Of a stretch of DNA of 26,595 bases, positions 3,631-22,977 are shown piece by piece. Position 1 is the first letter of the stretch; each line of letters opens with the position of its first letter. The notes beneath the pieces were generated by a model. It saw nothing but the letters and a program-made list of their open reading frames with translations. It was not told the origin of the DNA and ran no database searches. A program made the translations under genes and the position numbers. Location: contig CAZFXB010000003.1 in NCBI GenBank assembly GCA_964522835.1, positions 1 to 26,595 of the forward strand, given 5' to 3'. Origin of the DNA: an uncultured Oscillospiraceae bacterium. Lineage in GTDB: Bacteria; Bacillota; Clostridia; Oscillospirales; Oscillospiraceae.

Positions 3631-3668
3631 ATCACCCCGGAACGCATTTGCGCCCGGGGTGATTTTTT
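3631..3668. terminator. Terminator between nagZ and the last phage-like gene
   Basis: ATCACCCCGG...CCGGGGTGAT stem followed by TTTTT on + strand; the stop codon of the convergent gene lies at 3667. Confidence 0.8.
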
Positions 3669-4233
3669 ATTCCAAATACCCCAGTCGCTGTTCCCACGCC
3701 CCCTGAGATCGTTTTCGCAGATCCTCCAGTGCCACCGTCTCTTGAACGGTTGTGCTGGTTCGAATGTCATAATAAGAAAGTGTCACTGTTACCTTCATGT
3801 GACAGGGCATAATGCACTCCAGTACCCGCAGCTGAAACACAGGATCCTTGGCAATCACCATTTTCTCCTTCATGGTCACCTGGCAGCAAAAGGGCTCCGT
3901 TGACTCCGAAATCATCACCGGAATGCCGCAGGCCTCCAGCGTCTTCGTCAGTCTTTCCCTGCTTCCCCACTGGGTATCCACCGAAAACAGCGCCGACAGT
4001 GCTTCTCTTCGGCTGGTTGTGCCGTTGGATGCCAGCATTGGAAACAGCCCCTCTGCCAGCGACAGTCCGTTCCCCGTGGCAGTCCCTGGATCAATCTCTT
4101 TGATATATTGCTCCATCTGCTGCTGAACATCGTCCATACCGTTTCCCAATGCCTTCAGCTCACCCAGGTTGTATCCGCTGTCCCTGTACACCCCCAAAGG
4201 CTCCAGCATTCCCCAAAGATAATCAAAATACAT
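3667..4233 (-). CDS. Baseplate wedge protein, gpI / Mu gp48 / DUF2313-like (188 aa)
   Basis: Immediately downstream of baseplate J with TAATG overlap and GGAGG RBS; start MYFDYLWGML at 4233. Size, position and the 'CIMPCHMKV' end fit this class. Confidence 0.6.
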   Translation of the reverse strand: MYFDYLWGMLEPLGVYRDSGYNLGELKALGNGMDDVQQQMEQYIKEIDPGTATGNGLSLAEGLFPMLASNGTTSRREALSALFSVDTQWGSRERLTKTLEACGIPVMISESTEPFCCQVTMKEKMVIAKDPVFQLRVLECIMPCHMKVTVTLSYYDIRTSTTVQETVALEDLRKRSQGAWEQRLGYLE

Positions 4234-5282
4234 TAAATTCCCTCCAGCGTAATGGTGCCCAAAAGCAGCCGCTGTCCCGCCTCCGGGGTCATATCTGCCG
4301 CCGGCTTGGTAAACACAATGTTGTCTATGGCCCCTGTGGACATAGCTTTGCTGCAAAGTGCCGCCTTGTACAGTGTTTTCCCCAAAGCCAGCGATCCAAT
4401 GTAATCGCCAAGGGCCTGTTCCACCACGGTTTTTGCCTGAGATACCGAGTAGCCCTCTGCCGGAAGTATGGTCGCCTTAACTGTTACCACCACATTTTCC
4501 GGCTCCTGAACCACTACCGTAATTCCCAGCTCCCGCCGCTGCTCCAGCAGCGCATCCAGCTTGTCCAGTGCCCCCTGGGATACCTTCCCGCTGTCAGAGG
4601 TGACCAGCAGCCCCACAGACCCGGCCCCGTTCATCTGCGGCACCACCGATACCCCGTCGATCCCATCTACGCTCAGGGCCAGCTCCCGATAAAACGCCGC
4701 ATTTGTGCCGTTGTTCAGCCCCTTGTAGGATTCCAAGATTCTGCTTCGGTAATCCTCATCCGTTTCTCGACTTCGGCCGCCCGAAAACCGCTGTGGATTT
4801 GTCACCAGCTCCACCCCATCCGGCGGTGTCTGCATTACCGTAATACTCTTCGCCACTGCATTGCCCTGGGGCCCCGGTTCCACAGCCTGGGCTGCAATGT
4901 CTGCAGAGGTGCTTCCCGCCAGAATAATCCCGCTGTCTACAGTCTCAAAGGCCGTCCCCTCGCTGCTGAGGCAAATCGTCCCCTGTTCAATTCCCAAGGG
5001 TGCCGCCAACGGACTGGAAATCGAAAACCGAAGAGTTCCCGTAGCCTTTCGTTCCTCCAGCCGTGCAAGTCCCCGCCGCTGTCCGTGGAGATCCAGGCTT
5101 TCTTCCTGGGCCGTCTGCGGAAAGGCCTGTCGGTAAATGTAGTCTCCGTAGTGATAAAGTGCCATCAGCTGTGCCGCCGCTGCCTGAAACCGCACCGCCA
5201 AATCCCCGGTTGTCCCAATTTCATACCCGGTTTCCTCCTCAAAAAACGCCAGCATATCCTGATATATCTCTGCCTGTGTCAT
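4233..5282 (-). CDS. Baseplate J / Mu gp47 / XkdT-like protein
   Basis: Motifs QTAQEESLDLHGQRRGLARL, ATGTLRF, AVEPGPQGN, GGRSRETDEDYRSRI, GTNAAFYRELALSVDGI. Confidence 0.9.
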   Translation of the reverse strand: MTQAEIYQDMLAFFEEETGYEIGTTGDLAVRFQAAAAQLMALYHYGDYIYRQAFPQTAQEESLDLHGQRRGLARLEERKATGTLRFSISSPLAAPLGIEQGTICLSSEGTAFETVDSGIILAGSTSADIAAQAVEPGPQGNAVAKSITVMQTPPDGVELVTNPQRFSGGRSRETDEDYRSRILESYKGLNNGTNAAFYRELALSVDGIDGVSVVPQMNGAGSVGLLVTSDSGKVSQGALDKLDALLEQRRELGITVVVQEPENVVVTVKATILPAEGYSVSQAKTVVEQALGDYIGSLALGKTLYKAALCSKAMSTGAIDNIVFTKPAADMTPEAGQRLLLGTITLEGI

Positions 5283-5620
5283 TTTACTGTCACCTCCAAA
5301 TTCATTTCATTTCCCTCATAGCCAAGCTCCAGCTCCACCAGCATTGGCTCCCCGCTCGTTACCACAGCGTCCTTCACCGTCAGTCCCAAAGGCTCCAGGG
5401 CCTCCCCGGCGTAGCGAATCGCCAGAGTTTTTCGCACCGATGGCTTCTCCCGGTATAGCGTATACAGTCTGCTGCCTACCTCCGGCATCAGCGAAAATGC
5501 CCCCCGGCGGGCCGTCAACTGAAACATGGCCTGCTCCAAAATCGCCTCCAGCCCGTAGGCCCGCTGAAATCCACCTGCGCCATCGGGCACATAATCCCCC
5601 TCCCGCAGTTTCAGGCTCAT
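5279..5620 (-). CDS. Baseplate wedge gpW/gp25 / Mu gp46-like protein (113 aa)
   Basis: LTARRGAFSLMPEVGSRLYTL and 'AIRYAGEALEPL' pattern; directly upstream of J with ATGA overlap. Confidence 0.75.
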   Translation of the reverse strand: MSLKLREGDYVPDGAGGFQRAYGLEAILEQAMFQLTARRGAFSLMPEVGSRLYTLYREKPSVRKTLAIRYAGEALEPLGLTVKDAVVTSGEPMLVELELGYEGNEMNLEVTVK

Positions 5621-5970
5621 ACCGTAATCTCCTTTCCGTTCACCAGCACGGTTCCTTCCAACAGGATGGAGCCGTCATTTTTTAGCCAAATGGAGGCTTT
5701 TTCGGTATACAGCCGAATCTCTCCCGGCTCCATCGTGCCAGCCCCCTCTGTCTCTGCCCCTGCAATGCAGTCCTCCATTCCAGCCTTCACCACCAGAACC
5801 CCCTGGCCCCGTTTCGGCACCCAGGTCAATCCTCCGGGCCCGTAAACGGCCCGGCTGCTCTGATTCCCGGCGGACACCACCGTGCTGTTTTCGCCGCCCA
5901 GAGACACCGTCTCCAGGCTGCCGCCGGAGATATCTCCACCTGTTTGTTTCCAACGCTCCGAAAGAAACAT
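5617..5970 (-). CDS. Short baseplate spike, Mu gp45 / gpV-like (117 aa)
   Basis: Start reassigned to MFLSERW (AGGAG RBS). GPGGLTWVPKRGQGVLV and EPGEIRLYTEKASIWLKNDGSILLEG resemble the gp45-type OB and beta-helix regions; position hub > spike > gp46. Confidence 0.65.
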   Translation of the reverse strand: MFLSERWKQTGGDISGGSLETVSLGGENSTVVSAGNQSSRAVYGPGGLTWVPKRGQGVLVVKAGMEDCIAGAETEGAGTMEPGEIRLYTEKASIWLKNDGSILLEGTVLVNGKEITV

Positions 5971-5984
5971 TCTCTTTTCTCCTC

Positions 5985-6920
5985 TCAGCTCATTTCCCGC
6001 ATACGCAGCCTGCACTGTTTTCCCCCATCGCCCAGGCTGTTTTCTGTTTCTGTCACAAGAAATCCCCCGGAAATACCCATCTCCGGCAAATTCACCGTCA
6101 CAATATCCATGGGTTCTGCCCAAAACAAGTTGGGCAGCGTCACCTCCAGCGTGCGAAACTCCTTTTGGGAATCCATCAGCACTTGATTGGGCGAACTGAG
6201 CCCCGCCCTGCACCGATTCTTTCTTGGAACTGTCATCCGGCGGGTGGCACATCCGCCCAGCTTTTGAAATCTGCCGTTGTCCACCTGCTGTTCATAATAC
6301 GTGCCCACATATTGGGCCATAACCCGGCTGTAGACTCCGTATCGGGTCTGCCTCCACTGTGTTTTTTCCACCTCATTTGGATCCAGGCTCCGTCTTGTCC
6401 CGGTTTTTGAGGAAATCAGCAATGTGCCATCGGGTAAAAATCTGGGCTGAACCCCAGCCGCCCACAGACAAAATCCAGATAGGGCATCCCAGCAATCTGT
6501 TCCGTAGTCCACTGCATAGGTTGAAAGCCAATAGTTTTCCCCATACTGCACCGCCGGAAGGTTGTATGGCTCCGCATAATTTCTTAAAATATCCTTCAAT
6601 CTGACCCAGTAGTACACCCGCTCTGGCACCTCATTGTCCATCAGCAGTCCTGCCAGTCCCCGGCCATAGATCTCCCCTGTCATGCCTCTGTCGTCCCTCG
6701 TCACCTCATACTCATCCACGATTCCGCAGAATCGCTGTGTATCCCCCTCCCATGCTTCCAATCTCACCCCTCTGCTGAGGATTTTCTCCCAAGAGCTGTC
6801 CCAGCGAAAGCCCACCGAAAAGCTGTCGCTGCTGGTTCCGTCTGTATGTATAAATTGCCACTTCGTCAGCACAGGCAGACCTACCCTGCTGCCATCATTC
6901 AAAATCACCACAGCCTTCAC
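5985..6920 (-). CDS. Baseplate hub / late-control protein (XkdQ / Mu gp44-like, 311 aa)
   Basis: GTG start at 6920 overlaps the LysM gene stop (GTGA). FCGIVDEYEV...GEIYGRGLAGLLMDN pattern; position after the LysM gene. Confidence 0.75.
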   Translation of the reverse strand: MKAVVILNDGSRVGLPVLTKWQFIHTDGTSSDSFSVGFRWDSSWEKILSRGVRLEAWEGDTQRFCGIVDEYEVTRDDRGMTGEIYGRGLAGLLMDNEVPERVYYWVRLKDILRNYAEPYNLPAVQYGENYWLSTYAVDYGTDCWDALSGFCLWAAGVQPRFLPDGTLLISSKTGTRRSLDPNEVEKTQWRQTRYGVYSRVMAQYVGTYYEQQVDNGRFQKLGGCATRRMTVPRKNRCRAGLSSPNQVLMDSQKEFRTLEVTLPNLFWAEPMDIVTVNLPEMGISGGFLVTETENSLGDGGKQCRLRMREMS

Positions 6921-7447
6921 GGGATCACCACCATTCTGCCCACCGTCAGGCTGTTGGGGTTCTGTATCCACGTGTTGGCCTTCAGCAGTTCTTCAGCCGT
7001 GGTGCCGTACAGCTCTGCAATTTGCCACAGATTCTGTCCCGCCTGTACGCTGTGATTGCCCGAGGTTTTCGCCCCCTGCTGCACCACTGTACCATCTCCA
7101 TCCTCCCAGAACGAGAACCGATACTTCACGTAGTCCTCCCTGGGCTCCTGAATCAGCTCCAGCTCCTGAAACCAGGCCCGATTCATATCGATCACCGGGT
7201 GAACCAATACCCCAGTTCCCCCCTCATAGAATACCGCCAACAGAGCCTGCATCGTTTCATAGGCCCCTGCTCCGTAGAATTCCCCCTCGCCTGTCAGTAC
7301 CCGTATATTTTTCCCCAGATCCTCCAGTCCGCAGCCCCGTCCCGGAAATCTGTGCGCAACCAGCTCCCGGCTGGTACTGAGCTGATAGGAATAGGGATTG
7401 TTGGGCCATATAAAATCTTTATACCGCATATTCAGCACCTGCTGCAC
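6917..7447 (-). CDS. Tube-initiator protein with C-terminal LysM (XkdP-like)
   Basis: C-terminal HSVQAGQNLWQIAELYGTTAEELLKANTWIQNPNSLTVGRMVVIP is a clear LysM; position between the tape-measure slot and the hub. Confidence 0.85.
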   Translation of the reverse strand: MQQVLNMRYKDFIWPNNPYSYQLSTSRELVAHRFPGRGCGLEDLGKNIRVLTGEGEFYGAGAYETMQALLAVFYEGGTGVLVHPVIDMNRAWFQELELIQEPREDYVKYRFSFWEDGDGTVVQQGAKTSGNHSVQAGQNLWQIAELYGTTAEELLKANTWIQNPNSLTVGRMVVIP

Positions 7448-7450
7448 CCC

Positions 7451-7963
7451 CTAAGAATATCTTCTGGCGTCCCGTTGAAAAAACATAGAAAGCCGTTCCG
7501 GCTCCATGGCATTCTGAACCCGCTCCGGCTCCATAGCCTGCCGTCCCTGCCCATTGGCTCCGAATGCGGCTCCTGTTGTTTCGCCTGTTCCTCCGTTTAT
7601 GCGTCCCGTAGCCAGTATTTCCCGCCAGAGCCCCACTTGTTCCAGATAAGCCGCCCCATCCTTAATTTCCACCTGTTGTCTTGTTTGGAGCTCCTCCGAT
7701 TGCCGAATTCCCGCCAGTACCCGCTCCAGCGTTCTCGTTCTCTGCTGCCCCTTCCATGCTCCGGTGTCCTTTTCTTTTTCATTTTCACCTGTCCCACGAC
7801 CGGGCCCATTGTGTTCCGATGGTTCCTCCGTCTTCTGCCCATTGGTCATGCCATTTTCTCCAGACACCAGATATTCCTCCAGCCTTCTTCTCACTTGCTC
7901 CCCACTGTGCTCCTGTGTCCCGTCCTGCTGTTCCAATAAAACCTTCAGAATATAGTCATCCAC
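7451..7963 (-). CDS. 170-aa protein at the tape-measure position (putative mini tape measure)
   Basis: Position between chaperone and LysM genes; low-complexity, helical/charged composition. No sequence motif recognised. Confidence 0.45.
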   Translation of the reverse strand: MDDYILKVLLEQQDGTQEHSGEQVRRRLEEYLVSGENGMTNGQKTEEPSEHNGPGRGTGENEKEKDTGAWKGQQRTRTLERVLAGIRQSEELQTRQQVEIKDGAAYLEQVGLWREILATGRINGGTGETTGAAFGANGQGRQAMEPERVQNAMEPERLSMFFQRDARRYS

Positions 7964-8579
7964 CCTGTCTCATCTCCTCAAACCGGCTCAGATCAAAGCT
8001 GGGATTTCTGTCTGCCTCGTCCTCGATTGCACCGCCGCAGCGGATGCACCGGTGCTCCTCCACTTTTTGTCTGCATGTGGGGCAGAGTTTGTTTTTTTGC
8101 TCCTCGTTGTCCAGCATCAGCTGTACGGCGCAGTAAAGATAATCCCCCTCTGTCATGGATCTCGCCCGGCTTTCCGTGGGCAGTACGCCAAATGTTTTCA
8201 GTACATACCATCGAATCCGCTCCATCGGCTCCTTTTCCAGGGCCTCCATCAGGGCGCTGATTCGTGTCTCTTGACCACAATCCGGATCCACCCGGTCAGC
8301 CAGAGCCCGATACGCCTCCATCTCCTGGGCAATCTTCTCCCCGCTCCAACCTTCCAGCACCGACCGGCCCGAGGAAAACAGGCGCATCCCGCCCCGATAT
8401 ACCGCCCGGCTCAAAATACAGGCATTCCCCCGGAGGGCCAGGGTTTCTTCCGGCCCCTCCAGGCTCCTCGCCTCCTGTCTGGCCTGTATCAGTTCCCAGG
8501 CCGACAAAATGCGAAGCTCATATCCTTGTCTCGTAAGACACCGCTGGCCTGCCAGCACATCTAACAGTGCCTTATCCAT
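7956..8579 (-). CDS. Putative tail assembly chaperone with C-terminal Cys4 zinc ribbon
   Basis: Directly after the tube gene; contains YVLKTFGVLPTE and CPTC-x7-CIRC. Confidence 0.55.
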   Translation of the reverse strand: MDKALLDVLAGQRCLTRQGYELRILSAWELIQARQEARSLEGPEETLALRGNACILSRAVYRGGMRLFSSGRSVLEGWSGEKIAQEMEAYRALADRVDPDCGQETRISALMEALEKEPMERIRWYVLKTFGVLPTESRARSMTEGDYLYCAVQLMLDNEEQKNKLCPTCRQKVEEHRCIRCGGAIEDEADRNPSFDLSRFEEMRQGG

Positions 8580-8969
8580 TTAGGCATCCAGCTCCATTCT
8601 GCCGGTGGCAGTCAGGTTCACCTTCTCCAGTACTGTGCCTCCCAGGGCGGTGCTCTCCTCCAGACTGCTCCACTGGCACCCTGTATAGATCACCCGCCGT
8701 CCCGGCTTTACAATAACCAGAGAGAAATTCTCCATCTCGTAGAAATTAAGTCCATCCTGCAATGCCTTGTCCGTTGCATAAAGTCGGCTCAGCTCCAGCG
8801 TATACTTGCTGAGCCCCCGAATGGTCGCCACAGGCTCCTGCTGCCCAAATGCCTCAATATTCTTGCTGACTCTGGTGGTCACTGCCCGATAGGACTGTAC
8901 CACCGCCACCTTGGTTCCATCACACTCCAGATAAATATCCGCACTTGTGGGTATTTTCACTGTTTCCAT
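8580..8969 (-). CDS. Tail tube protein (129 aa)
   Basis: Follows the sheath gene. Alternating beta-strand pattern (IYLECDGTKVAVVQSYRA...YTLELSRLY...VIYTGCQWSS...LEKVNLTA) and size fit contractile-tail tubes. Confidence 0.75.
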   Translation of the reverse strand: METVKIPTSADIYLECDGTKVAVVQSYRAVTTRVSKNIEAFGQQEPVATIRGLSKYTLELSRLYATDKALQDGLNFYEMENFSLVIVKPGRRVIYTGCQWSSLEESTALGGTVLEKVNLTATGRMELDA

Positions 8970-8984
8970 GGTATGCTCCTCCTT

Positions 8985-10028
8985 TTACACTGAAATGTGG
9001 GCCGTCAAATAGATGCGGCTGATACCATGAGCCACCGCAAACGAGAACGTAACCAGACAAATGGTAGGATCCTCCGCATCTGCCTCCACTTCGATCTCCC
9101 CGTAGTCATCAATAATCTCCCGCTGCTTTCGATTTTCCAGCTCCACCACCACCTGAGAGCGAATGGCGCCCCGGGTTGCCTCATTGTTTTTCTTCCGAAT
9201 AAATCTGGCCCGTAGGGCATTCCGCACCCCAGGCACCACATCGTCCACGATTCTTATGGTGGTAAGTTCCCGCCAGCTGGCATCTGCCACACTGTTGGTG
9301 GTCGTCCTGGTGGTCACCGCCCGGATCAGGCTCACCGTACCGCCCGATGCCTCCAGCTGGCTGACACCGCCCTTTACCAGGGTGTCGATTTCCGTGTCCG
9401 TAAAACGCTGAGGCACATTTCCAATGCCCTTCAGCGCCACACCGTGAACCGGAACCGCCGGATCTGTCTCTCCGGCCAGCAAGCCTGCCACCGCTGCGGC
9501 TCCGTAGATACCGCCGCCGATGGAGCTGTCCCAGCTCAACTTTGCGCTGCCGGCCACCAATACCATTCGTTCGCAATTCAGGGAAGCCGCCCTGGACACC
9601 AGGGGATTAACGCCTGTACTGGCCATACCGATCACACCAATGCACTCATTTCCATCTTCCGCTGCCGCCTGAAGTGCATTCCGCATAACCAGTTGAACAT
9701 CTCCGTAATCGCAGTCGCAGATCAGGAAGGATGCCTGTTTTTCCTCCAGCAGCTTTTCTATTGCTACTTTGTAGTTGTCCGCCGTATCATCTGCCGACGG
9801 ATACAGCAGCACAGTTCCTGCGCCGTTCATCAGCAGCAGTCTGGTCAGATTCAGCACCACCTTCTGAGATCCCAGTACACGCTCTGCCTGGCTGATCGAG
9901 GTGATGGTTACCAGACCCGAGCCTGCGAACACCCCCGCCAGTGCCACAGTCCTGCTGCCGCCGCTGGATACCAGTATGGTTGACATTTCATAATTTGAAT
10001 ACACGCCCGTTCGTTCGTGATAATCCAT
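8985..10028 (-). CDS. Contractile tail sheath protein (compact, 347 aa)
   Basis: N-terminal RTGVYS; C-terminal 'IDTLVKGGV...LIRAVTT...WRELTTIRIVDDV...IRKKNNEATRGAIRSQV...FSFAVAHGISRIYLT' sheath signature. RBS AAAGGAG, start 10028. Confidence 0.9.
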   Translation of the reverse strand: MDYHERTGVYSNYEMSTILVSSGGSRTVALAGVFAGSGLVTITSISQAERVLGSQKVVLNLTRLLLMNGAGTVLLYPSADDTADNYKVAIEKLLEEKQASFLICDCDYGDVQLVMRNALQAAAEDGNECIGVIGMASTGVNPLVSRAASLNCERMVLVAGSAKLSWDSSIGGGIYGAAAVAGLLAGETDPAVPVHGVALKGIGNVPQRFTDTEIDTLVKGGVSQLEASGGTVSLIRAVTTRTTTNSVADASWRELTTIRIVDDVVPGVRNALRARFIRKKNNEATRGAIRSQVVVELENRKQREIIDDYGEIEVEADAEDPTICLVTFSFAVAHGISRIYLTAHISV

Positions 10029-10057
10029 TCTTACATCTCCTTTTTCGCTTCTGTTAA

Positions 10058-10091
10058 GAGGCCGCATCAGGCTTCACCGGATGCAGCCTCT
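10058..10091. other. Stem-loop in the head/tail intergenic gap
   Basis: AGAGGCCGCATC...GATGCAGCCTCT (11/12 complementary, G-U compatible on the minus-strand mRNA); no U-tract on the coding strand. Confidence 0.5.
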
Positions 10092-10094
10092 TTC

Positions 10095-10568
10095 TCACAG
10101 CATCAATGCCTTCACCCGGAAATCGCTCAGCGCAACTCCGCTGTCTGTCTCCGTGCCATAGGCCATAATTCGGCTCTGTACCGTAATTTCCTGTCGAAAG
10201 CAGTCCCGCAGACTATCATACTGGGCCTCAGCGCACAGAATCTCCTGTACCCCCAGCTGCCCCACTGCCAGCAGCACTGCGTTCATGATTTCTTCCCCAA
10301 AGGCCTCTGCCTCCGGTGCCCCCAGTTCCTTCGGGGTCAGCAATACCAGCGCAAATGTAACCGTCAGCTCTGCCCCATAGACCTCATTGCCGTCAATGTC
10401 CAGCCCCAGATACTGCTGAAAGGCCCCCTGGGCTCCGGTGATCTGCCGAAGGGAAACGAACACACCCTTCTCCTTCTGTAAGGGCCCCATTTTCCAGGCC
10501 CCGCCGTCTGCCGCCGAGATTCCTGCCTGCTTCAGTGCCGCTTTCAGCGCAGCTTTAAGCTCCTGCAT
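10095..10568 (-). CDS. Putative tail terminator / completion protein
   Basis: 157 aa directly upstream of the sheath gene; position-based call. Confidence 0.5.
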   Translation of the reverse strand: MQELKAALKAALKQAGISAADGGAWKMGPLQKEKGVFVSLRQITGAQGAFQQYLGLDIDGNEVYGAELTVTFALVLLTPKELGAPEAEAFGEEIMNAVLLAVGQLGVQEILCAEAQYDSLRDCFRQEITVQSRIMAYGTETDSGVALSDFRVKALML

Positions 10569-10899
10569 CTTCGCTCCCTCCCTGGATCAGCAGTGCCCAC
10601 CAATATAAGTTTTCTCCCGCTGCCTCATATCGTTCCTTCCTGCGCAGGAAAAATGTTCTTTCCCCAGCCGTCACCGTGTGTACCTCTGTCAGATCCACCT
10701 CCGGCAGTCCAAAGTATTGATAGCTTCCCGGTGGAAAATATCCATCCGGCAGGGCCGCAATGCTTCTGGCGTTTTCCGAAACACTATGTACCGGGTCAAT
10801 GATGGCTCTGGTCTCCTGGTCGCCCCATTTTCCCTTCAACACCACAGGCTGTCCCAGCAGCCGGATTTTTTCTCCAATGCTTTCGCCCATCTGTTTCAT
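10555..10899 (-). CDS. Putative head closure (SPP1 gp16-like) protein
   Basis: 114 aa beta-rich protein following the connector gene; start ATG 10899 right after the upstream TAA. Confidence 0.5.
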   Translation of the reverse strand: MKQMGESIGEKIRLLGQPVVLKGKWGDQETRAIIDPVHSVSENARSIAALPDGYFPPGSYQYFGLPEVDLTEVHTVTAGERTFFLRRKERYEAAGENLYWWALLIQGGSEDAGA

Positions 10900-10900
10900 A

Positions 10901-11236
10901 TTAAACCCTCTGAAATCCAAAGCTCTGATCCTTCATCCAGGGTCTCAGCAATTCTATCGCCGCCGAGGTGAATCGGTCTCCCTCCTGACTGACCGACAGG
11001 CTGACGGAACCAGCAGCAAAGCTGCTGATGGCTCCCTCCCCTACGCCGTCCTCCCAGGCTTTTGCTGCCAATGCAGCCACTGCAACAGGGAATGCCTTTC
11101 CGCAGTCCTCCACGGTCACATCCTCCTTCAGCCGCATTTTGAGGGAGTTGTACGCACTCTGGCACAAGGCCGCCAAAAGCGTATCGTCCTTTTCGCCACC
11201 GGATATTTCGGCTGCCATGGTCAAAATCTCGTCCAT
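10901..11236 (-). CDS. Head-tail connector (SPP1 gp15 / HK97 gp6-like)
   Basis: Directly after the capsid gene; helical N-terminus plus 'ISSFAAGSVSLS' hairpin typical of this class. Confidence 0.7.
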   Translation of the reverse strand: MDEILTMAAEISGGEKDDTLLAALCQSAYNSLKMRLKEDVTVEDCGKAFPVAVAALAAKAWEDGVGEGAISSFAAGSVSLSVSQEGDRFTSAAIELLRPWMKDQSFGFQRV

Positions 11237-11237
11237 A

Positions 11238-12269
11238 TTACAACTTCAGCGCCTTCACCGCTTCTGTCTGGATTTTTACAAAGCCCACCATGCAGGTAAT
11301 GGCCGCACGCTCAATCTGCCGATCAATGAGCTTGTCATATTCCACTTCAACATCTCCTGCCTTCACCATCTCCAGGGCGTACCGACGATCCAGACCGATC
11401 ATGGTACCTGCCTCCAGGCTGTCATTCCGGATCAGCTTGGCACCCAGAGGGGAAATCACGTTGCCCTTGCTCTGGAAATCAAAACCTGCCAAAGGATTCT
11501 TCATTTCGTCCATATTCAGCAGCTTTACCATCATATCGGGCGCAACGATCAGCGTGTTCATCTCGTATGGATGGAACAGGCTCCAGAACTTCACCAGTGC
11601 CTCGTAATCGAGAACATCCTCGGTTCCGCCGATGGTAGCATCTCCGGGGGAATAGACCGGGGCCACATTCTCGTTGTCCTGACCGTCTCCCTCCAGCAGG
11701 CATTTGACTGCCTCATCCATAAGCTGTGCCTGCATGTGTGCACCGATCTGCCGCAGCATCACCGAAAACAGATCCAGCCGCTGGAACCGGATTGCCTCAT
11801 AGGATGCGCTGAGGATTCTGCCTCGTTTCCGCAGAGTCACATAGTTTTCCCTTGCGAAGATGTTCGTCTCCGGAATGGACGCACCCTCGGCCACCTCAGC
11901 CAGACTCTTCATCTCCTCCGAAGGGATCGAATACATGGATCTGTAGTCGTAGGAATTGATGTTGGTCACCGTTGAAACAATGTCTCCCAGGTGATCCTCC
12001 CCTTCCATACCCTGGTGGATCATTCTGTGAATGTATTCCGGAAAGAGAACCCTGGATTCCACCGTGGAGAAAAACTTGTCCACACAATCCGAGTTAGGGC
12101 CCTTTACCTTGATGTCAAACCGCTTGAGCTGCCGCTGAAAAGCGTCCAGATGCTCATAGGCAGTTCCCCGGTAGTTTTCACTGGGATCCAGCCGCTCCAG
12201 CACCTGAGAAAAGCTCTTTCCGCTTTCTCCATACATTCCCTTATCCAGTTTCAGATTATCAAATGCCAT
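11238..12269 (-). CDS. Major capsid protein, HK97 fold (343 aa)
   Basis: AEVAEGASIPET, VTLRKRGRILSASYEAIRFQRLDLF, 'EYDKLIDRQIERAAITCMVGFVKI...AVKAL' HK97-type motifs. Confidence 0.9.
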   Translation of the reverse strand: MAFDNLKLDKGMYGESGKSFSQVLERLDPSENYRGTAYEHLDAFQRQLKRFDIKVKGPNSDCVDKFFSTVESRVLFPEYIHRMIHQGMEGEDHLGDIVSTVTNINSYDYRSMYSIPSEEMKSLAEVAEGASIPETNIFARENYVTLRKRGRILSASYEAIRFQRLDLFSVMLRQIGAHMQAQLMDEAVKCLLEGDGQDNENVAPVYSPGDATIGGTEDVLDYEALVKFWSLFHPYEMNTLIVAPDMMVKLLNMDEMKNPLAGFDFQSKGNVISPLGAKLIRNDSLEAGTMIGLDRRYALEMVKAGDVEVEYDKLIDRQIERAAITCMVGFVKIQTEAVKALKL

Positions 12270-12286
12270 AGTAATCGCTCCTCTCT

Positions 12287-12634
12287 TTACAGTAAAAATG
12301 TGACATAACGTTCCGTGGTATCCACTGCAACCACCAGCCGGGGCACATTGCCCGCAATCCCGGAAAGGGCTTTTACGTATCCATTTCCGTCGGCCACCAG
12401 TTCACAATATCCCACCGTAGGAGCCGTCACCCCGCTATAGGGCATTTTGATAAATCCGCCCACCTGCATGGTTGCGTTTCCGTCCCGCTCCCAGAGGCAC
12501 ACCCCGTGAAATACATCCCCGTTGTCGCACCAGTATCCGGCGTCATTTTCGCTCACCTTGGACACACACCCCGGGCTCATGCCTTTATTCTTCAGTGTAA
12601 TGTCCACTTCTCCGATTCCATTGTAGCTGTACAT
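12287..12634 (-). CDS. Putative capsid decoration/cement protein (115 aa)
   Basis: Between protease and capsid genes; small Gly-rich beta protein (GDVFHGV...ATMQVGG...LVADGNGYVK). Confidence 0.55.
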   Translation of the reverse strand: MYSYNGIGEVDITLKNKGMSPGCVSKVSENDAGYWCDNGDVFHGVCLWERDGNATMQVGGFIKMPYSGVTAPTVGYCELVADGNGYVKALSGIAGNVPRLVVAVDTTERYVTFLL

Positions 12635-12654
12635 AAATGTTCCTCCTTAGTAAA

Positions 12655-12969
12655 TTAAATTCGATAGACCTCGCCGTCGCAGTCCTTTACAACATCTGCC
12701 GACAGCTGACTTTTCCCGCAGTGGAGCTGCTCCATTTTCTTTTGGAACCCCTTATGGAGCTTGTCCAGCACATCGTCCTCCAGTCCCATGGCCATTTCCT
12801 CCAGTTCCTTTCGGCTCAGTCCCAGTTCCAGTGCCACGCCCATCCGTGCAAAGTCCTGTTCCTTTTCGATTCGCTGGGCCTCTCCGTAGCTGGCCAGTGC
12901 CTTCAGCTTGGCAAGCTCCTTTTTCAGCCCTTCCAGTCCGCTTTTCTCCACATACTCCTTCAAACCCAT
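12655..12969 (-). CDS. Putative nested in-frame scaffold protein (104 aa)
   Basis: Perfect SD AAAGGAGGTGA (12974-12984) upstream of the in-frame ATG at 12969, right after the protease domain ends. Confidence 0.6.
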   Translation of the reverse strand: MGLKEYVEKSGLEGLKKELAKLKALASYGEAQRIEKEQDFARMGVALELGLSRKELEEMAMGLEDDVLDKLHKGFQKKMEQLHCGKSQLSADVVKDCDGEVYRI

Positions 12970-13557
12970 ATATTCACCTCCTTTCCAGTGCTTCACCACC
13001 CCAGCCCTGGGCTGGGCCGGCACTGCCACAAAGGAGAATTCATAGGCATCCAGAGGCTCCTGTAAGATTCCAATACACATCTCCCCCTCGTAATATTTGC
13101 CCGGCACATGGCCGCAGGCACCGATCTCCCCGCCGCAGATGGAGCAGGTCTTTCGCCCCATGCTACAGGATATGCTGACCTCCCGGCGAATGCCGCTTTC
13201 AATATCATGGATTACTTCCTCTTTTCCCTTTCGGGGTATATAGGCCCAGCCCCGTAGCCAGGAGCTCTCCGGTTCCCGTACCACTTCTGTGTCGAAAACC
13301 CGTGCCACCTGCTTCTCTGCGGACCAGTTGTGATCCACAATGCCGGGTTTTCCCACAAACAGCTTCCCCAGGGTCTCCAGCGCCTCACGGTCAAACTGTT
13401 CGTAGTCCCGATCCACCTGATCGTCGCAGAGCCGGACAGAAAAGGCATATACCTCCTCTGATGTAAGGGCTGTTTTGCTTTGGAGATTGATTTTCTCCAA
13501 CTGACCATCATCCGGCACTCCGCCGGGAAGGCCCATTCCCTGTTTATTGATCTTCAT
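12655..13557 (-). CDS. Prohead maturation protease with C-terminal scaffold-like coiled coil (300 aa)
   Basis: GKPGIVDHNW (His), REVSISC (Ser), AYEFSFVAVPAQPRA (HK97-type protease end). RBS AAGGAGG before ATG 13557. Confidence 0.85.
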   Translation of the reverse strand: MKINKQGMGLPGGVPDDGQLEKINLQSKTALTSEEVYAFSVRLCDDQVDRDYEQFDREALETLGKLFVGKPGIVDHNWSAEKQVARVFDTEVVREPESSWLRGWAYIPRKGKEEVIHDIESGIRREVSISCSMGRKTCSICGGEIGACGHVPGKYYEGEMCIGILQEPLDAYEFSFVAVPAQPRAGVVKHWKGGEYMGLKEYVEKSGLEGLKKELAKLKALASYGEAQRIEKEQDFARMGVALELGLSRKELEEMAMGLEDDVLDKLHKGFQKKMEQLHCGKSQLSADVVKDCDGEVYRI

Positions 13558-14695
13558 GTGCTTCCTCCTTCTGTAAATTCTCAGCCTGTACCCGGTAAAG
13601 GGCGGTCTTGGCCTCCTCCACCATGTCCTGCAAGCTGATGTCCTCCCAAACCACCTCATAGCCGCAATCCCAGCCCTGGAGCCGCAGGAAGGTTTCCCCG
13701 ATCTTTTCCAGCACCGGGGTCACCGCCCGTCGAATGGCCCAAAGCTCCGAGGTCAGCATATCTGCCTGCTGCTGGCTCATCCGTTCCGTAGAGGCCCAAC
13801 TCAGCCCCAGCAGGAATGGGGGCAGTCCTGTTTTTGCCACCAGCTGTTCCAGAATCTGCCTTACCGGCACCTCCGAGTCCAGCACCGGGCCATCTGCACC
13901 AATGACTTTGATCTCCACATCGCCTACCGCCACAAAATCCCGAACCGCCCCGCTTTTGCTCTCCTCCATGGCCTGGCTCCACTCTCTGGCCATGGTAGAC
14001 AGTCTATGTTCCACAGTCCCCTGATCCACATTTTCTTCCCCGGGCCGATATACCACCGAGTAGCGCACATTGCCTGCCCGCTCCCAGTTTCGGCCCACTG
14101 TCTCGTAGATTTTCATCAGGATTTCTGTCAGAAACGGCATACTTCGGAACAGGCTCACCCCATAAGGGCTCCCCACCTCCGGATTCAATGTAGAAAACAG
14201 CAGCAGCTCCTGCCGGGGCAGCGGCATCATTTGTCCAAATTCATTGGGGCCGCAAATGGTAATGTCCAGCGGACTCTCCCCCTGCCGGATCTCCGCCTGG
14301 GTCACATCTCCCCACAGCACCGCCTGTACCCCCTCCGGCCCTGTGACCAGTTCCCCCAGGGCCCGGCCATAGGTCAGCATACTGTCGAGATACCCGCCCA
14401 GGAAGCCATCCAGTCCCACCTGTCCCCGGCCCACAGGCACCTTTCGGAGGAATTCCTCCATGGCCTTCTGCGCCCCCGGCGCAGTGCATTCAATGGTAAA
14501 CCCGCCAACCAACCGGATCAGCTTTCCCACCGCCGCATCCAGAATGGGTACGCTTTCCCGAATCCCCCGGTACAGCCGTTCCTGGCTGCCCCCCAAGGGG
14601 ATTTGGCTGCTCAGACCTCCAAAGCGAAGTCCCTGATCTGTCCGCAGCTGGGTAGCCTGTACACCGCCACCCCGGGCCTTCTTCCAAAATTTCAT
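13544..14695 (-). CDS. Portal protein (383 aa)
   Basis: Between large terminase and protease. NPEVGSPYGVSLFR, 'GNVRYSVVY', KTGLPPFLLGLSW portal-like motifs. Confidence 0.85.
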   Translation of the reverse strand: MKFWKKARGGGVQATQLRTDQGLRFGGLSSQIPLGGSQERLYRGIRESVPILDAAVGKLIRLVGGFTIECTAPGAQKAMEEFLRKVPVGRGQVGLDGFLGGYLDSMLTYGRALGELVTGPEGVQAVLWGDVTQAEIRQGESPLDITICGPNEFGQMMPLPRQELLLFSTLNPEVGSPYGVSLFRSMPFLTEILMKIYETVGRNWERAGNVRYSVVYRPGEENVDQGTVEHRLSTMAREWSQAMEESKSGAVRDFVAVGDVEIKVIGADGPVLDSEVPVRQILEQLVAKTGLPPFLLGLSWASTERMSQQQADMLTSELWAIRRAVTPVLEKIGETFLRLQGWDCGYEVVWEDISLQDMVEEAKTALYRVQAENLQKEEAHEDQ

Positions 14696-15954
14696 CGAAT
14701 TCCTCCTGTTCTTCTGGCCACCGCCTGGGCCCCAAAGGCCGTTTCCGTTCCGCCCAGTATGGTGGCCGCAAAATATCGCATATCGTCCATGGCGTGGTCA
14801 TATTCCTTCCGCACCGTGTCCTTGCCATTCTTATCGTCCCAGGCATACAGCTCCATTTCTCTGAGGCAGTCGCAGCAGCCGCTGCATATTTTGATTTTCC
14901 CGTTTTTCAGCAGCTCTGCCGTCCGCCGGATCCCAGATAGCACATCGTTGTCTGCCTTTTTCACATGCCACCCCTCTCTCCGGAGCAGCTCTGAAAAGCT
15001 GGCCGCCGATGGGTCAATCACCACCGCCCGGATTTTTCTTCCTCCTGCCAGCCTTGCAAGTGCCCTGGCATATTCCCCGTCTGTCAGCTGCCGTCCCTCC
15101 CGCTTGGAGTCGTAGTAGTATTCGTTCAGCCGATACCAAACCCCCGCCTTGCTGCCCCATAGCCCAAAGGATGTGGGATTCACCGTGCCATAGTCGCAGG
15201 AGATGTAGTATTCTCCACAGGGCTCCTCCGGCCTTTCCACCGCCATATCCTGGGTGAAAAAATCGTAAACCCGTCCCTCCACACTGACCCATTTCCCCAA
15301 TATAAAACGTTCGTAGAAGGTTCCGGTATAGAGCCTTTCGTATCTTTCCCGAATCTGTCTCGTCAGGGATGGGTTGTCCTCCATGGTAAAGTGTAAATAC
15401 AGCGCCTTCTTTTCGTTTGCCCCCAGGATCCACTCCTTGTAGAACCAGTGTCCCGGCCCCTCCGGGTTACAGTTGAACCAGATTCGGCTCCCAGACAGAG
15501 AGCAGCGGGCCATGGCCTGCTCCACAAAGCTTCTGGGCATCAGGGCCACCTCGTCCATCAGCACCCCGCCGAAGGTAACACCCTGGATCAAAGAGGCCGA
15601 CCCCTCGTCCTTGCCGCCGAACTGATAAAACTCATTGGTTCGCCCCTTCCAGGTCACCGTCAGCAAATTTTCCGACCTTTTTTCCGTACATTTCAGCCCC
15701 AGCTCTCCAAGCACCGGCACAATCTCCTTCAGTACATTTCGCCGGAGGGAAATAATCGTTCTTCCGCAGAGGCCAAACCGACTCCCGTTGAAGCAGCACA
15801 TGGCCCATAGGAAGAAGCTCAAGCTCATGCTCAGGGTCTTTCCCGACCGAACAGCCCCATCGCAGATAATGGCCTCCATTTTGTGATAGGGACTTTTCCC
15901 CGTCCACCAGGTCAATACCGTTTTCTGCTTCGGTGAAAAGCTGATCAGGGTCAT
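14692..15954 (-). CDS. Terminase large subunit, PBSX (XtmB-like) family
   Basis: Walker A DGAVRSGKT, Walker B VLMDE, FNCNPEGP, nuclease DYGTVNP and DHAMDDMRY. Confidence 0.95.
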   Translation of the reverse strand: MTLISFSPKQKTVLTWWTGKSPYHKMEAIICDGAVRSGKTLSMSLSFFLWAMCCFNGSRFGLCGRTIISLRRNVLKEIVPVLGELGLKCTEKRSENLLTVTWKGRTNEFYQFGGKDEGSASLIQGVTFGGVLMDEVALMPRSFVEQAMARCSLSGSRIWFNCNPEGPGHWFYKEWILGANEKKALYLHFTMEDNPSLTRQIRERYERLYTGTFYERFILGKWVSVEGRVYDFFTQDMAVERPEEPCGEYYISCDYGTVNPTSFGLWGSKAGVWYRLNEYYYDSKREGRQLTDGEYARALARLAGGRKIRAVVIDPSAASFSELLRREGWHVKKADNDVLSGIRRTAELLKNGKIKICSGCCDCLREMELYAWDDKNGKDTVRKEYDHAMDDMRYFAATILGGTETAFGAQAVARRTGGIR

Positions 15955-16241
15955 ACCCCCTCCCCCTCCTGTAGAGAGCGAAGAAATGCCTCCGCACCGT
16001 CCTCATCGGTTTTCAGCAGCTCCAGCAGCCGGTTCAGAATGCTGACCCGGTCAATAAGCTTCAGTTCAATGTTGCCGTTGACCCCTCGCTTCACCTCGCT
16101 GACCAGACTCAAATCCACATCAGCCTCTGTGCACCGGCCCTCCAGCAGTGCCGCACACTCGCTTCCGCTGCCAAAGCCCAGCCGCACCAGCCGTTCCAGC
16201 ACATCCTCGTACCCGATTTTCTCCTTCTGCTTTTCTTCCAT
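15951..16241 (-). CDS. Terminase small subunit-like protein (96 aa), no obvious HTH
   Basis: ATGA overlap with the large subunit; 'VSEVKRGVNGNIELKLIDRVSILNRL' resembles the TerS oligomerisation segment. Confidence 0.7.
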   Translation of the reverse strand: MEEKQKEKIGYEDVLERLVRLGFGSGSECAALLEGRCTEADVDLSLVSEVKRGVNGNIELKLIDRVSILNRLLELLKTDEDGAEAFLRSLQEGEGV

Positions 16242-16308
16242 AAAAAATCTCCCTTCACCCATATTCTCCCAACTCTGGTTTTTTGCCTATTTTTCTGTCC
16301 TCTTTTCC

Positions 16309-16350
16309 GAAAAAATAAAAAAGCGTGTTGCAAACTTACCTGCAACACGC
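16309..16350 (-). terminator. Intrinsic terminator separating early genes from the late operon
   Basis: Perfect 10-bp stem GCGTGTTGCA / TGCAACACGC (16323-16350) followed on the minus strand by TTTTTTATTTTTT. Confidence 0.8.
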
Positions 16351-16364
16351 CCAAACAGTATTCC

Positions 16365-16520
16365 ATTCGTCCCGAAGGGACGGCAACCGGCCCTACAGCA
16401 ACCCCAAGGCCCCCTGAGAGCTGTAGGGCGGGCTGCCCTCAGCCCGCCGCTGGTACGCAGTCCTTGAACCCCACCACATCATTGCGAGCCAGTGATCGAC
16501 ATCTACTACGGTGGCAATCC
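16365..16520. repeat. Cluster of GC-rich palindromic (REP-like) units
   Basis: Hairpins CGTCCC-GAA-GGGACG; GCCCTACAGC...GCTGTAGGGC (16390-16429); GCGGGCTG-CCCT-CAGCCCGC; and a GGATTGCCAC...CACTGGCTCGCAATG unit on the minus strand. Confidence 0.6.
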
Positions 16521-16541
16521 GTATTTCCCCCGACAATAGCC

Positions 16542-16772
16542 CTAAGTACAATATTGAAGATAGTGGGCAATGCGGGATTCTGCTCTGCGCCGAAGTCGCT
16601 GGGCCGAGGCTGGGGTGATCCCCAGCTTTTTTGCAGTCTGGGCATCGTTCAGTTCTTCCACATAGTAGAGCTGGATCACCTGCTGCTGCCGTGGGGTCAG
16701 CTCCTGACGAATAATGGAGGGCAGAATGGCCCGCTTCTTTTCAAACAAAGGATCATAGTGCATATTTGCCAC
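16542..16772 (-). CDS. Sigma70 region-4-type HTH protein (76 aa), candidate late-operon activator
   Basis: ELTPRQQQVIQLYYVEELNDAQTAKKLGITPASAQRLRRRAESRI is a canonical sigma70_r4 HTH. GTG start with AAAGGGGG RBS; same position as PBSX xpf. Confidence 0.8.
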   Translation of the reverse strand: MANMHYDPLFEKKRAILPSIIRQELTPRQQQVIQLYYVEELNDAQTAKKLGITPASAQRLRRRAESRIAHYLQYCT

Positions 16773-16983
16773 GTTTTTGATACCCCCTTTCATAGTAGTG
16801 TTCCAGCAGCGTGGCAATTTCTCTGGTTTCCCGGCGAAGCTGGGTAAGCTCCAGGATCCGGCGATCCAGCCGAAAACATTCCTGGGGCGGACAGCTTTTC
16901 CGCAGTGCCCGGAGCTCCAGAATCCGGGTTCTGAGCCGGGCTTCCTGCTGGCGGTATTCCTTGGATAGCTCTAACAGTGTCAT
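16753..16983 (-). CDS. Small coiled-coil early protein (76 aa)
   Basis: AAAGGAGGG RBS, start MTLLELSKEY; overlaps both neighbours. Confidence 0.7.
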   Translation of the reverse strand: MTLLELSKEYRQQEARLRTRILELRALRKSCPPQECFRLDRRILELTQLRRETREIATLLEHYYERGYQKRGKYAL

Positions 16984-17144
16984 CGGATGCCCTCCTTTTG
17001 CAATTCTCGCCTGCGGCACCGGGGGCAGAAGCCGTCTTGCTTCATACCACGATAGAGCTCGCTGCCGCAGATGCGGCACCAGGATAAGGGCGAAAGGGCC
17101 TGCTGATCCTGACTTTTCCACGTCCTGGTTCCTTTTCTTTTCAT
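16980..17144 (-). CDS. Small Cys4 zinc-finger early protein (54 aa)
   Basis: CRIC...CPRC; AGGGGAG RBS; ATGA overlap with the next gene; first gene after the sigmaA promoter. Confidence 0.7.
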   Translation of the reverse strand: MKRKGTRTWKSQDQQALSPLSWCRICGSELYRGMKQDGFCPRCRRRELQKEGIR

Positions 17145-17167
17145 GAACACTCCCCTAAAATGTAAAT

Positions 17168-17206
17168 TATTACAATCATTGTAATACACGAATCGTGTTG
17201 TGTCAA
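17168..17206 (-). promoter_or_regulatory. Early sigmaA promoter with two palindromic operators
   Basis: Minus strand TTGACA (17201-17206)-17 nt-TACAAT (17178-17183). Palindromes ACACGA-A-TCGTGT (17186-17198, in the spacer) and TATTACAAT-C-ATTGTAATA (17168-17186, over the -10). Confidence 0.85.
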
Positions 17207-17227
17207 GAAGATTTACCTAAATTTTCC

Positions 17228-17256
17228 TTTACTTTCCAAAATAGCCGTGCTAAACT
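17228..17256 (+). promoter_or_regulatory. Promoter of the repressor gene
   Basis: TTTACT-17 nt-TAAACT with extended TG. Confidence 0.65.
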
Positions 17257-17293
17257 ATGATGTGAAACGAGAAATCGGAAGGAGGCATGAAAA

Positions 17294-17632
17294 ATGGTGG
17301 GAATGCGGATTGCACAGCTTCGGCGGGAAAATAACATGACCCAGAGGGATCTGGCCCTGGCCCTGAATGTATCCCCCAGTGCCATTGGCATGTATGAACA
17401 GGGAAGGCGGCAGCCCTCGGCAGATTTAATCGTGAACATCTGTCAAACCTTCTCTGTCAGCACCCAATGGTTGCTCACTGGGCGGCCCTATACAGGCAGA
17501 GATTTTCAGGAGGATTTGAAAATGCTGCTGCAAACCCCTGGGCCTGAGGGAGAAACAAGGGTGGATTTGGAGGAAGTGGAGCATCTGCTGCGGGAACTGG
17601 GGAAAAGTTGTGCCGAAACCGGGATATCCTGA
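17294..17632 (+). CDS. Xre/Cro-CI family HTH repressor (112 aa, no S24 peptidase domain)
   Basis: RIAQLRRENNMTQRDLALALNVSPSAIGMYEQGRRQPS HTH_3 signature; divergent from the phage-like operon. Confidence 0.9.
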   Translation: MVGMRIAQLRRENNMTQRDLALALNVSPSAIGMYEQGRRQPSADLIVNICQTFSVSTQWLLTGRPYTGRDFQEDLKMLLQTPGPEGETRVDLEEVEHLLRELGKSCAETGIS

Positions 17633-21732: not shown

Positions 21733-21738
21733 GCATGT

Positions 21739-21766
21739 AAAAGGCCGCCCTTTGGGGCGGCTTTTT
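21739..21766. terminator. Intrinsic terminator after the GT2 gene
   Basis: AAAAGGCCGCCC-TTT-GGGGCGGCTTTTT. Confidence 0.8.
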
Positions 21767-21789
21767 GCTATGGACGGGCATACATGGAA

Positions 21790-22088
21790 GCACTGGTGCG
21801 GCAGCACCTTGCCTCGCCCCGCTGGGGAGAGGTGGCACGGCGTAAGCCGTGACGGAGAGGGGAAGAAAAGCAGTGCGTTTTTGCACTGGTGCGGCAGCAC
21901 CCAGAGCCTCCCTTGTGTAAAGGGAGGTGGCACGGCAATGCCGTGACGGAGGGATTGTGCAGTAGAATGCTGTGTATAGCAAGAACTTTTCGGCGAAGTC
22001 GTACTACGGTAGTCAATCCCTCAGTCAGCTGACGCTGACAGCTCAGCACAAGGCACTTCCTTCGGTCGCCTTTACACAAGGGAGCCTC
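21790..22088. repeat. Composite palindromic intergenic repeat array
   Basis: 19-bp direct repeat GCACTGGTGCGGCAGCACC at 21790 and 21883; duplicated GAGGTGGCACGGC..GCCGTGACGGAG; 16-bp inverted repeat CTCCCTTGTGTAAAGG (21908) / CCTTTACACAAGGGAG (22069). Confidence 0.75.
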
Positions 22089-22187
22089 CGGCTGGTGCAA
22101 ATTTGTTGGTTTGTACACAGTCCTTGTCGCCCACCATATCGTTGCGAATATAACAGTGTTTACGGGTTTACCCGGCCGGAAAAGTGC

Positions 22188-22680: not shown

Positions 22681-22718
22681 ATATATATCTTAATGACTGT
22701 GAAGGAAGTGGAGTATAT

Positions 22719-22955: not shown

Positions 22956-22977
22956 TCCTTTCGCATGGAGTATAACC

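Follow-up and report, generated by a model that had tools for sequence, protein, structure and literature searches.

A chromosomal cluster of phage-derived particle genes inherited within the Oscillospiraceae, a candidate gene transfer agent of the PBSX kind

Introduction

PBSX, a defective prophage of Bacillus subtilis and a gene transfer agent (GTA)-like 'phibacin', has a divergent Xre repressor, an early operon whose last gene encodes a sigma-like late activator, and late genes for a head and a contractile tail. Here we analysed a locus of similar order, 19 morphogenesis genes with a four-gene switch, in a 26,595-nucleotide contig of an uncultured Oscillospiraceae bacterium (CAZFXB010000003.1). 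This contig, called the window below, makes up all of contig C3 in a metagenome-assembled genome (MAG; G000) of 2.32 Mb and 80% completeness, whose closest relatives are labelled Oscillospiraceae. Our results point, with a probability of roughly 0.7, to a phage-derived particle system that is fixed in the chromosome and passed on vertically, a viriform of the GTA/PBSX kind from a large family in the Oscillospiraceae.

The locus shares with PBSX the arrangement of the switch, a large terminase (TerL) of the PBSX family, an XhlA-like/holin/Amidase_3 lysis cassette, the lack of integrase and replication genes, and the gene order: terminases, portal, capsid, sheath, tube, chaperone, tape-measure slot, LysM protein, hub, Baseplate_J protein and gp48/XkdU-like protein. 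A first interpretation made from the letters of the window (the sequence-only reading) had called it PBSX-like, which holds for gene order, TerL family and switch logic but not for the head and tail-length modules. The Xre gene is clear; the activator is a full sigma factor in PBSX, whereas here it has sigma region 4 only (91 amino acids, aa). PBSX has a long tail, fibres and a contiguous xhlA-xhlB-xlyA lysis cassette. Here there is no fibre gene, the small terminase (TerS) is without a helix-turn-helix (HTH) segment, the similar lysis cassette lies unlinked on another contig, and the tape-measure slot encodes 170 aa, whereas the PBSX tape measure XkdO has more than 1300 aa. The portal and the major capsid protein (MCP), compared at the level of Pfam families, matched none of those of PBSX XkdE and XkdG. 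The element described here also differs in its hosts, being an Oscillospiraceae element inherited across at least three families.

RcGTA of the Alphaproteobacteria is likewise a domesticated cluster of head and tail genes, about 14 kb long and co-diverging with its hosts, with a TerS that has no DNA-binding domain, a short tape measure, and lysis genes (in RcGTA also attachment genes) at other loci under a common regulator. It differs in its non-contractile siphovirus-type tail and in its control by CtrA/GafA, with no resident xre/sigma switch, and its proteins are related to those of the window at fold level at most (the tube matches 6tba at Foldseek E 1e-3). FpGTA of Faecalibacterium prausnitzii is described as podovirus-like or tail-less, with baseplate, fibre, holin and endolysin genes in a second operon (PMC12946183); it is the nearest ecological neighbour and perhaps an evolutionary one. 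Compared by description and not by sequence (proteins RCH50849.1 and RCH50851.1), FpGTA resembles the locus in coming from gut Oscillospirales, in its minimal packaging/head operon without integrase or replication genes, in its TerS without an obvious DNA-binding domain, in having lysis genes elsewhere, and in being near single-copy and widely conserved in its host group (PMC12946183). Unlike FpGTA, the element in the window has sheath, tube, hub and baseplate genes in its main operon and no fibre gene.

GTA-like packaging has also been reported in the Oscillospiraceae themselves. Two 2026 studies that sequenced virus-like particles reported such packaging of host DNA in Onthomonas and Pelethomonas without finding the responsible genes (PMC12946183; bioRxiv 10.64898/2026.07.08.737213); the packaged fragments of about 5.9 kb were those reported for an Onthomonas MAG (PMC12946183). 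Full-text literature searches found no published description of the present cluster.

Results

Distribution and inheritance of the cluster

A portal profile matched more than 573 species representatives of GTDB, and the best 80 species were all labelled Oscillospiraceae or similar (Faecousia, Oscillibacter, Dysosmobacter and others). When the family was sampled evenly, a portal match was found in 107 of 246 high-quality genomes and 57 of 101 genera, nearly always in a single, full-length copy with no stop. Of 109 family portals, about 92% were full-length and free of stops. Among high-quality genomes sampled across the order, three families had a prevalence of 40-50% and twenty had none.

Portal divergence followed host divergence. 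Portal and rpoB distances, compared across 28 genomes of 18 genera, gave a Mantel r of 0.82, and none of 5000 permutations was as high. The two trees had 15 of 25 splits in common, whereas label permutation gave 0.17 on average and never more than 3. Once the rpoB p-distance exceeded 0.15, the minimum portal p-distance was 0.205; that is, distant hosts had no similar portals.

Among 50,697 phage records no close relative was found except three 'Bacteriophage sp.' virome scaffolds from human faecal samples (MT835769.1, MT835508.1 and MT835952.1; loci L001, L002 and L003), which are filed as 'UNVERIFIED: Bacteriophage sp.'. In each of them a member of the cluster family is flanked on both sides by homologues of housekeeping genes. 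These scaffolds are therefore bacterial chromosomal fragments. The next best phage record, a Microcystis phage, had 29% identity, and the best 80 matches in IMG/VR were all 18 kb or shorter.

All of the relative contexts that we examined were minimal and bounded by housekeeping genes, and the chromosomal positions differed between genera. Gene boundaries in relatives were taken from tblastn and called genes; longest-open-reading-frame (ORF) and GC3 callers mis-called this DNA of about 55% GC. The same minimal architecture was seen in a non-gut relative from groundwater (HGW-Firmicutes-16; G043, L150/L151), with a g21-like/sigma-like gene pair downstream of the baseplate genes and not upstream of TerS. 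No terminase genes stood beside the portal in L218 and G045; the latter (L148/L149) also had a fragmented gene at the protease position and an extra 425-aa ORF after the baseplate genes.

Within the genus, four congeners (G001, G004, G005 and G007) keep the cluster with all 19 genes intact. Synonymous sites were saturated (dS >1), and dN/dS of the morphogenesis genes was 0.03-0.6, versus 0.11-0.25 for the flanking host genes. The congener G018 has an empty site, in which a 541-aa flank gene, the GH3 gene and metG are contiguous and only 118 bp separate GH3 from metG. The rpoB tree of the genus has two clades. Every carrier belongs to the same one, in which a tight subclade of four species is without the cluster; the other clade, of nine species, wholly lacks it. 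This pattern makes the distribution (5 of 21 species) phylogenetically coherent, and it would require two losses, or else a single gain and a single loss. The cluster is an old, fixed insertion kept by selection.

Host genes border the element on both sides: a GH3 hydrolase gene lies to its left, and metG and the genes for a glycosyltransferase and GroEL follow to its right. The GH3 flank is common to G001 and G007, and the window genes r6/r7 adjoin TerS in G001 and G005. The switch adjoins metG in G004, G005 and G007, and among congeners it stands beside metG only where the cluster is present. TerS and the activator are parted by three host genes in G004 and by an inversion in G001 and G005, and in G007 they are on separate contigs beside host genes. 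Despite this separation, switch and late operon are both intact in all four genomes. An AT-rich stretch was seen at 22600-24100 of the window (GC 0.43-0.47 versus 0.53 for the genome), where the ORFs 23066-23497 and 23498-24028 had no Pfam match.

Synteny, dN/dS, single copy, the Mantel test and the common splits together give the vertical inheritance and purifying selection that mark a GTA. The sequence-only reading had proposed to look for a single-copy element (one portal per genome), a tree congruent with the host's, conserved synteny and dN/dS well below 1, and all four were observed, the synteny at the same locus in congeners. Neutral decay and close relatives in full-length temperate phages, which it had named as evidence to the contrary, were found neither in the congeners nor among the phage records and best IMG/VR matches, respectively.

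Gene content of the late operon

The late operon consists of 19 intact, tightly packed, co-oriented ORFs at 3667-16262 (minus strand, 12.6 kb), running from TerS to a gp48-like baseplate protein, and 4-nt start/stop overlaps are common among them. Genes were named by Pfam, PHROGs and NCBIfam searches with the window proteins.

3667..4233 (-): gp48/XkdU-like baseplate wedge protein, last late-operon gene; PF10076 Phage_Mu_Gp48, E 4e-5, below cut-off (weak)
4233..5282 (-): Baseplate_J-like wedge protein; PF04865, E 3.5e-47; phrog_6, E 2e-60
5279..5620 (-): small GP46/gpW-like baseplate protein; PF07409, E 3e-4, and phrog_180, both weak
5617..5970 (-; listed ORF extends to 6252): spike-position protein, ~117 aa; phrog_25991, E 9e-19; called as 117 aa in relative L152
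5985..6971 (-): baseplate hub; phrog_177, E 1.6e-20
6917..7447 (-): LysM + DNA_circ_N tail/baseplate protein (XkdP/gpX-like); PF01476, E 4e-10; PF07157, E 7e-9
7451..7963 (-): tape-measure-position protein, 170 aa; by position only, no family match
7956..8579 (-): tail-assembly-chaperone-position protein, 207 aa, C-terminal zinc ribbon; by position only, weak DZR matches
8580..8969 (-): predicted tail tube, 129 aa; phrog_27038, E 9e-48 (no family name); predicted fold
8985..10067 (-): tail sheath, 360 aa; PF04984 (Phage_sheath_1), PF17482 (Phage_sheath_1C); phrog_279, E 2e-36
10095-10568, 10555-10920 and 10901-11236 (-): three small neck/connector-position genes; by position; phrog_25177 (function unknown) for the first only
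11238..12269 (-): MCP, HK97-type; PF25209 (Phage_capsid_4), E 2e-12; phrog_3922, E 6e-96
12287..12634 (-): small virion structural (decoration-like) protein; phrog_4588, E 6e-19
12655..13659 (-; true start probably near 13557): protease/scaffold-position protein; phrog_16951, E 7e-83, function unnamed; 300 aa in relatives
13544..14695 (-): portal; phrog_30703, E 2e-143
14692..15954 (-): TerL, PBSX family; TIGR01547, 200.6 bits versus a cut-off of 105; Terminase_6N, Terminase_6C
15951..16262 (-; start probably the second ATG at 16241): TerS without N-terminal HTH; weak Terminase_2 match, positions 56-134 only

The gp48-like gene adjoins the convergent host GH3 gene, whose end is at 3625, and has orthologues at the same position in the four carrier congeners. 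All three neck/connector-position genes are also conserved in congeners. The ATPase motifs of TerL are intact as read from its sequence (Walker A GAVRSGKT, Walker B LMDE). An in-frame tandem duplication of about 86 residues (TIISLRR…ARC), which is either real or an artefact of MAG assembly, brings TerL of G007 (L014 4623-6113) to 497 aa. The AlphaFold2 model of the tube had a pLDDT of 80.7, and Foldseek gave a probability of 1.0 and a TM of about 0.55-0.6 to tail tubes, namely those of phage 812, phiCD508, diffocin and RcGTA. The product of 8580-8969 is thus predicted by its fold to be the tail tube. A sequence search of the PDB with sheath, tube and MCP gave no useful match, and the tube was placed by the fold search alone. 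The GC content of the cluster was 55.5% versus 52.8% for the genome, and its tetranucleotide distance was at the 94th percentile; these values are decisive neither way.

No integrase, replication, fibre, holin or endolysin gene was found on the 26.6-kb contig with Pfam, PHROGs and NCBIfam, and no direct repeat of 9 bp or longer is common to both junctions. The window and its relatives thus carry phage-like structural and packaging genes in the chromosome without replication or integration genes of their own, as GTAs do, and the window shows none of the features of a temperate prophage (integrase, att repeats, replication and lysogeny modules). A satellite like the capsid-forming phage-inducible chromosomal islands (cf-PICI) does not fit either, since integrase and replication genes are missing and sheath, tube and baseplate come from genes of the element itself. 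Unlike the tail-only tailocins and extracellular contractile injection systems (eCIS), it has genes for TerS, TerL, portal and MCP, all of them intact.

Regulatory switch and unlinked lysis cassette

The switch lies upstream of TerS, and a lysis cassette with the same leader was found on another contig.

17294..17632 (+): Xre-type repressor, divergent, at the right end of the element, metG next; PF01381 (HTH_3), E 1.3e-16
16753-17121 and 16980-17189 (-): two small early genes, the second with CxxC…CxxC; no family match; orthologues beside xre and metG in G004, G005 and G007
16542..16817 (-): sigma-70 region-4-only protein, presumed late activator, 91 aa; PF08281, E 1.4e-8; PF04545, E 4e-8
17206-17178 (-): early promoter-like site TTGACA-17-TACAAT; 11/12 consensus matches
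16352-16321 (-): intrinsic terminator with a 14-bp stem, between early genes and TerS; terminator scan
within 16236..16352 (-): late-operon leader GGAAAW-N18-48-AWGGGTGAARG, 3' of the terminator; alignment of six leaders
G000 contig C13 7397-8700 (locus L299 3398-4700) (-): orphan lysis cassette, given as C13 7397-8580 in the comparison with PBSX; 80-aa XhlA-like transmembrane/coiled-coil protein, 66-aa holin (phrog_297), 242-aa Amidase_3 endolysin (phrog_435)

The activator has sigma region 4 only and is therefore not a complete sigma factor. The leader motif (terminator, GGAAAW, 18-48 nt, AWGGGTGAARG) was derived from the TerS upstream regions of five species. It had exactly two matches in the 2.32-Mb G000 assembly, versus about 0.07 expected by chance according to our estimate from motif information content and genome size. 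One is the TerS upstream region and the other is the lysis cassette on C13, which is preceded by a terminator and the leader as at TerS and sits among host genes, between a 696-aa host gene and rplS (upstream of rplS). G001 carries the same cassette behind the same leader. The amidase was not found in the carriers G004, G005 and G007, even at E 1e-3, nor was the cassette found in any non-carrier, and beside the clusters in the loci examined no lysis homologue was found except a weak match in L024. Since the cassette is missing from the other carriers and its amidase is rare, it is a lineage-specific addition and not a family trait. Extra GGGTGAARGGRG boxes in G000 (C295, C306), G004, G001 (C30) and G007 were rejected as chance matches, lying inside coding sequence or without the terminator/GGAAAW context.

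Most of what the sequence-only reading had claimed for the gene content was confirmed by ORF reading and family searches. This applies to the 19 intact, co-oriented genes in 12.6 kb from terminases to baseplate with many start/stop overlaps, to the four-gene switch (xre, two small genes and the region-4-only protein at 16542-17632), to the absence of integrase, replication and fibre genes, which extends to the whole contig, and to the presence of an intact head, which sets the element apart from a tailocin or eCIS. Its statement that there is no lysis gene stands for the locus and the contig but fails genome-wide, given the cassette with the same upstream signature on C13.

Short dispersed repeats occur at 16380-16540 (37 BLAST matches) and 21733-22110 (96) of the window and across the G000 assembly. 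Host-wide dispersed repeats have been inserted in the spacer between TerS and the activator. Metagenome contigs of three other runs end at about 16381-16511, within the first repeat. Read evidence came from Logan contigs. One gut metatranscriptome library had near-identical contigs across the late operon, for which DNA carry-over is possible, and this gives a weak hint of late-operon expression.

Terminase and tail reduction

TerS has about 145 aa and a classical N-terminal HTH segment (…RRRAFAQVYLKT…) in G004 and G005, and this segment is gone in G000, G001 and G007. Across the family, 42 of 65 TerS ORFs were short, and none of the 42 matched HTH. TerS has lost its N-terminal HTH within the genus. 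An HTH-less TerS together with a headful-type TerL of the PBSX family suggests packaging without site recognition, as in RcGTA.

The 170-aa tape-slot protein had 30% identity to that of G001, and elsewhere only the last ~19 residues are conserved. In 22 sheath-bearing relatives the interval from tube to LysM gene was 0.02-1.27 kb (median 0.92 kb), so no relative has room for a normal tape measure. Tail length follows a rule of 0.15 nm per tape-measure residue. With 170 residues, the tail would be at most about 25 nm long if this protein, assigned to the tape-measure role by position only, does play it. In G049 (L337 10634-11241) and G185 (L338 10780-11411), two adjacent ORFs of about 100 aa each take the place of the 207-aa gene at the chaperone position, so that the window gene resembles a fused two-ORF tail-chaperone pair.

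In the portal tree the sheath-bearing type is basal, with a large nested clade without sheath, some members of which have a tube homologue, and a further nested group that shows the head module only. These nested losses of sheath and tail indicate that the head and packaging genes are the conserved core. Sheath-less relatives (L154, L216, L217 and L218) carried the head genes with LysM, hub and Baseplate_J genes in about 10.5 kb.

Discussion

That the element is host-maintained and domesticated, as had been proposed from the sequence, is borne out by the empty site in G018, the intact genes, dN/dS, the single copy, the congruent trees and the lack of phage relatives. A host-maintained, phage-derived particle system is very likely. 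Random packaging of host DNA is likely, and gene transfer by the particles is possible. Because an intact set of head, packaging and short-tail genes is inherited with the chromosomes, the cluster is a leading candidate for the missing Oscillospiraceae GTA genes.

We propose the following working. The Xre repressor would keep the early promoter shut. Upon derepression, the early operon would make the sigma-region-4-only activator, with transcription ending at the strong terminator, and the activator would switch on the leader GGAAAW…AWGGGTGAARG before the 19-gene late operon. In the G000 lineage the same leader also stands before the unlinked XhlA-like/holin/amidase cassette. The late operon would build an HK97-type head, a neck and a contractile tail, with a P2/Mu-type baseplate, no fibre and a length limited by the 170-aa tape slot to about 25 nm or less. 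TerL and the HTH-less TerS would most likely fill the heads with arbitrary host DNA. The producer cell would then lyse, and the particles may either deliver DNA, as a true GTA, or act otherwise, as in PBSX-like killing.

The latter outcome leads to another explanation, in which the element is a PBSX-like phage-like bacteriocin that packages host DNA incidentally, its selected function being to kill or compete with related strains by adsorption and contraction. The G000 lineage does retain a contractile sheath, tube and baseplate; its TerL family, xre/late-activator logic and XhlA-like/holin/amidase cassette parallel PBSX; and the same alternative has been raised for FpGTA (PMC12946183). However, a fibre or receptor-binding gene was found neither in the cluster nor near it, and the tail would be far shorter than that of any known tailocin. 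Many relatives have dropped the sheath or the whole tail and kept the head and packaging genes, which points to a head with DNA as the conserved function. We therefore consider the bacteriocin explanation unlikely.

The insertion relative to the empty site in G018, the 16 of 21 congeners without the element and the degradation of some relatives would suit an ordinary defective prophage remnant, that is, a functionless temperate myovirus that has lost its integrase, replication, lysis and fibre modules. This explanation is largely refuted, and we regard it as very improbable: 19 genes and the switch are intact in five species at saturated synonymous sites with dN/dS like that of host genes, family portals are overwhelmingly full-length, the same minimal architecture recurs across genera and families, the trees are congruent with the host's, and no complete phage relative is known. 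It is also hardly credible that the element is still mobile, as a helper-dependent satellite or a miniature phage that uses functions encoded elsewhere. Its small size, its differing chromosomal positions between genera and its appearance in virome-derived scaffolds are in line with mobility, but those scaffolds have host genes on both sides, and integrase, excisionase, primase/replication genes and att repeats were not found. Unlike capsid-forming satellites the element encodes its own tail, it is single-copy in each genome, and the portal distances show no near-identical copies in distant hosts.

Several points weigh against a host-maintained particle system of the GTA/PBSX kind. Particle, packaged DNA and transfer have been observed for no member of the family. 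Host-restricted temperate phages can co-diverge with their hosts too. The element occurs in only 5 of 21 species of the genus, and some relatives are without terminase genes or have fragmented genes (G045, L218, G149 and G167). The lysis cassette was found in only two of the five carriers, and few genomes of the family (5 of 250) have an amidase of its type. A receptor-binding protein was not identified, and the RNA evidence consists of contigs of one RNA library only. A head too small for the 14 kb that encode it, as in GTAs, is no more than a possibility, because the sequence does not show the T number of the capsid.

A broader reading goes further. In this reading the cluster would be the missing genetic basis of short-fragment GTA-like packaging in the Oscillospiraceae, an ancient domesticated viriform of family level or older, with a contractile tail a few sheath discs long, a multilocus regulon (late operon and lysis cassette under one leader motif) and a reduction series from mini-contractile to sheath-less to head-only forms. 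We hold this reading tentatively, at a little short of even odds.

The cluster family offers a concrete candidate for the genes of Oscillospiraceae GTA-like packaging, present in about 40-50% of the high-quality genomes sampled in each of three families of the order. Complete or near-complete assemblies exist for some carriers, such as the complete genomes G111 and G049, and one or more carriers are named isolates, for example Oscillospiraceae bacterium CM18GR_63 (JAWQDX01, L090), which makes the idea directly testable. If it is confirmed, a contractile, ultra-short-tailed type would join the few known gene transfer agents, the DNA-recognition domain of TerS would have been lost repeatedly during domestication, and the particles would be a major route of gene flow among abundant gut anaerobes.

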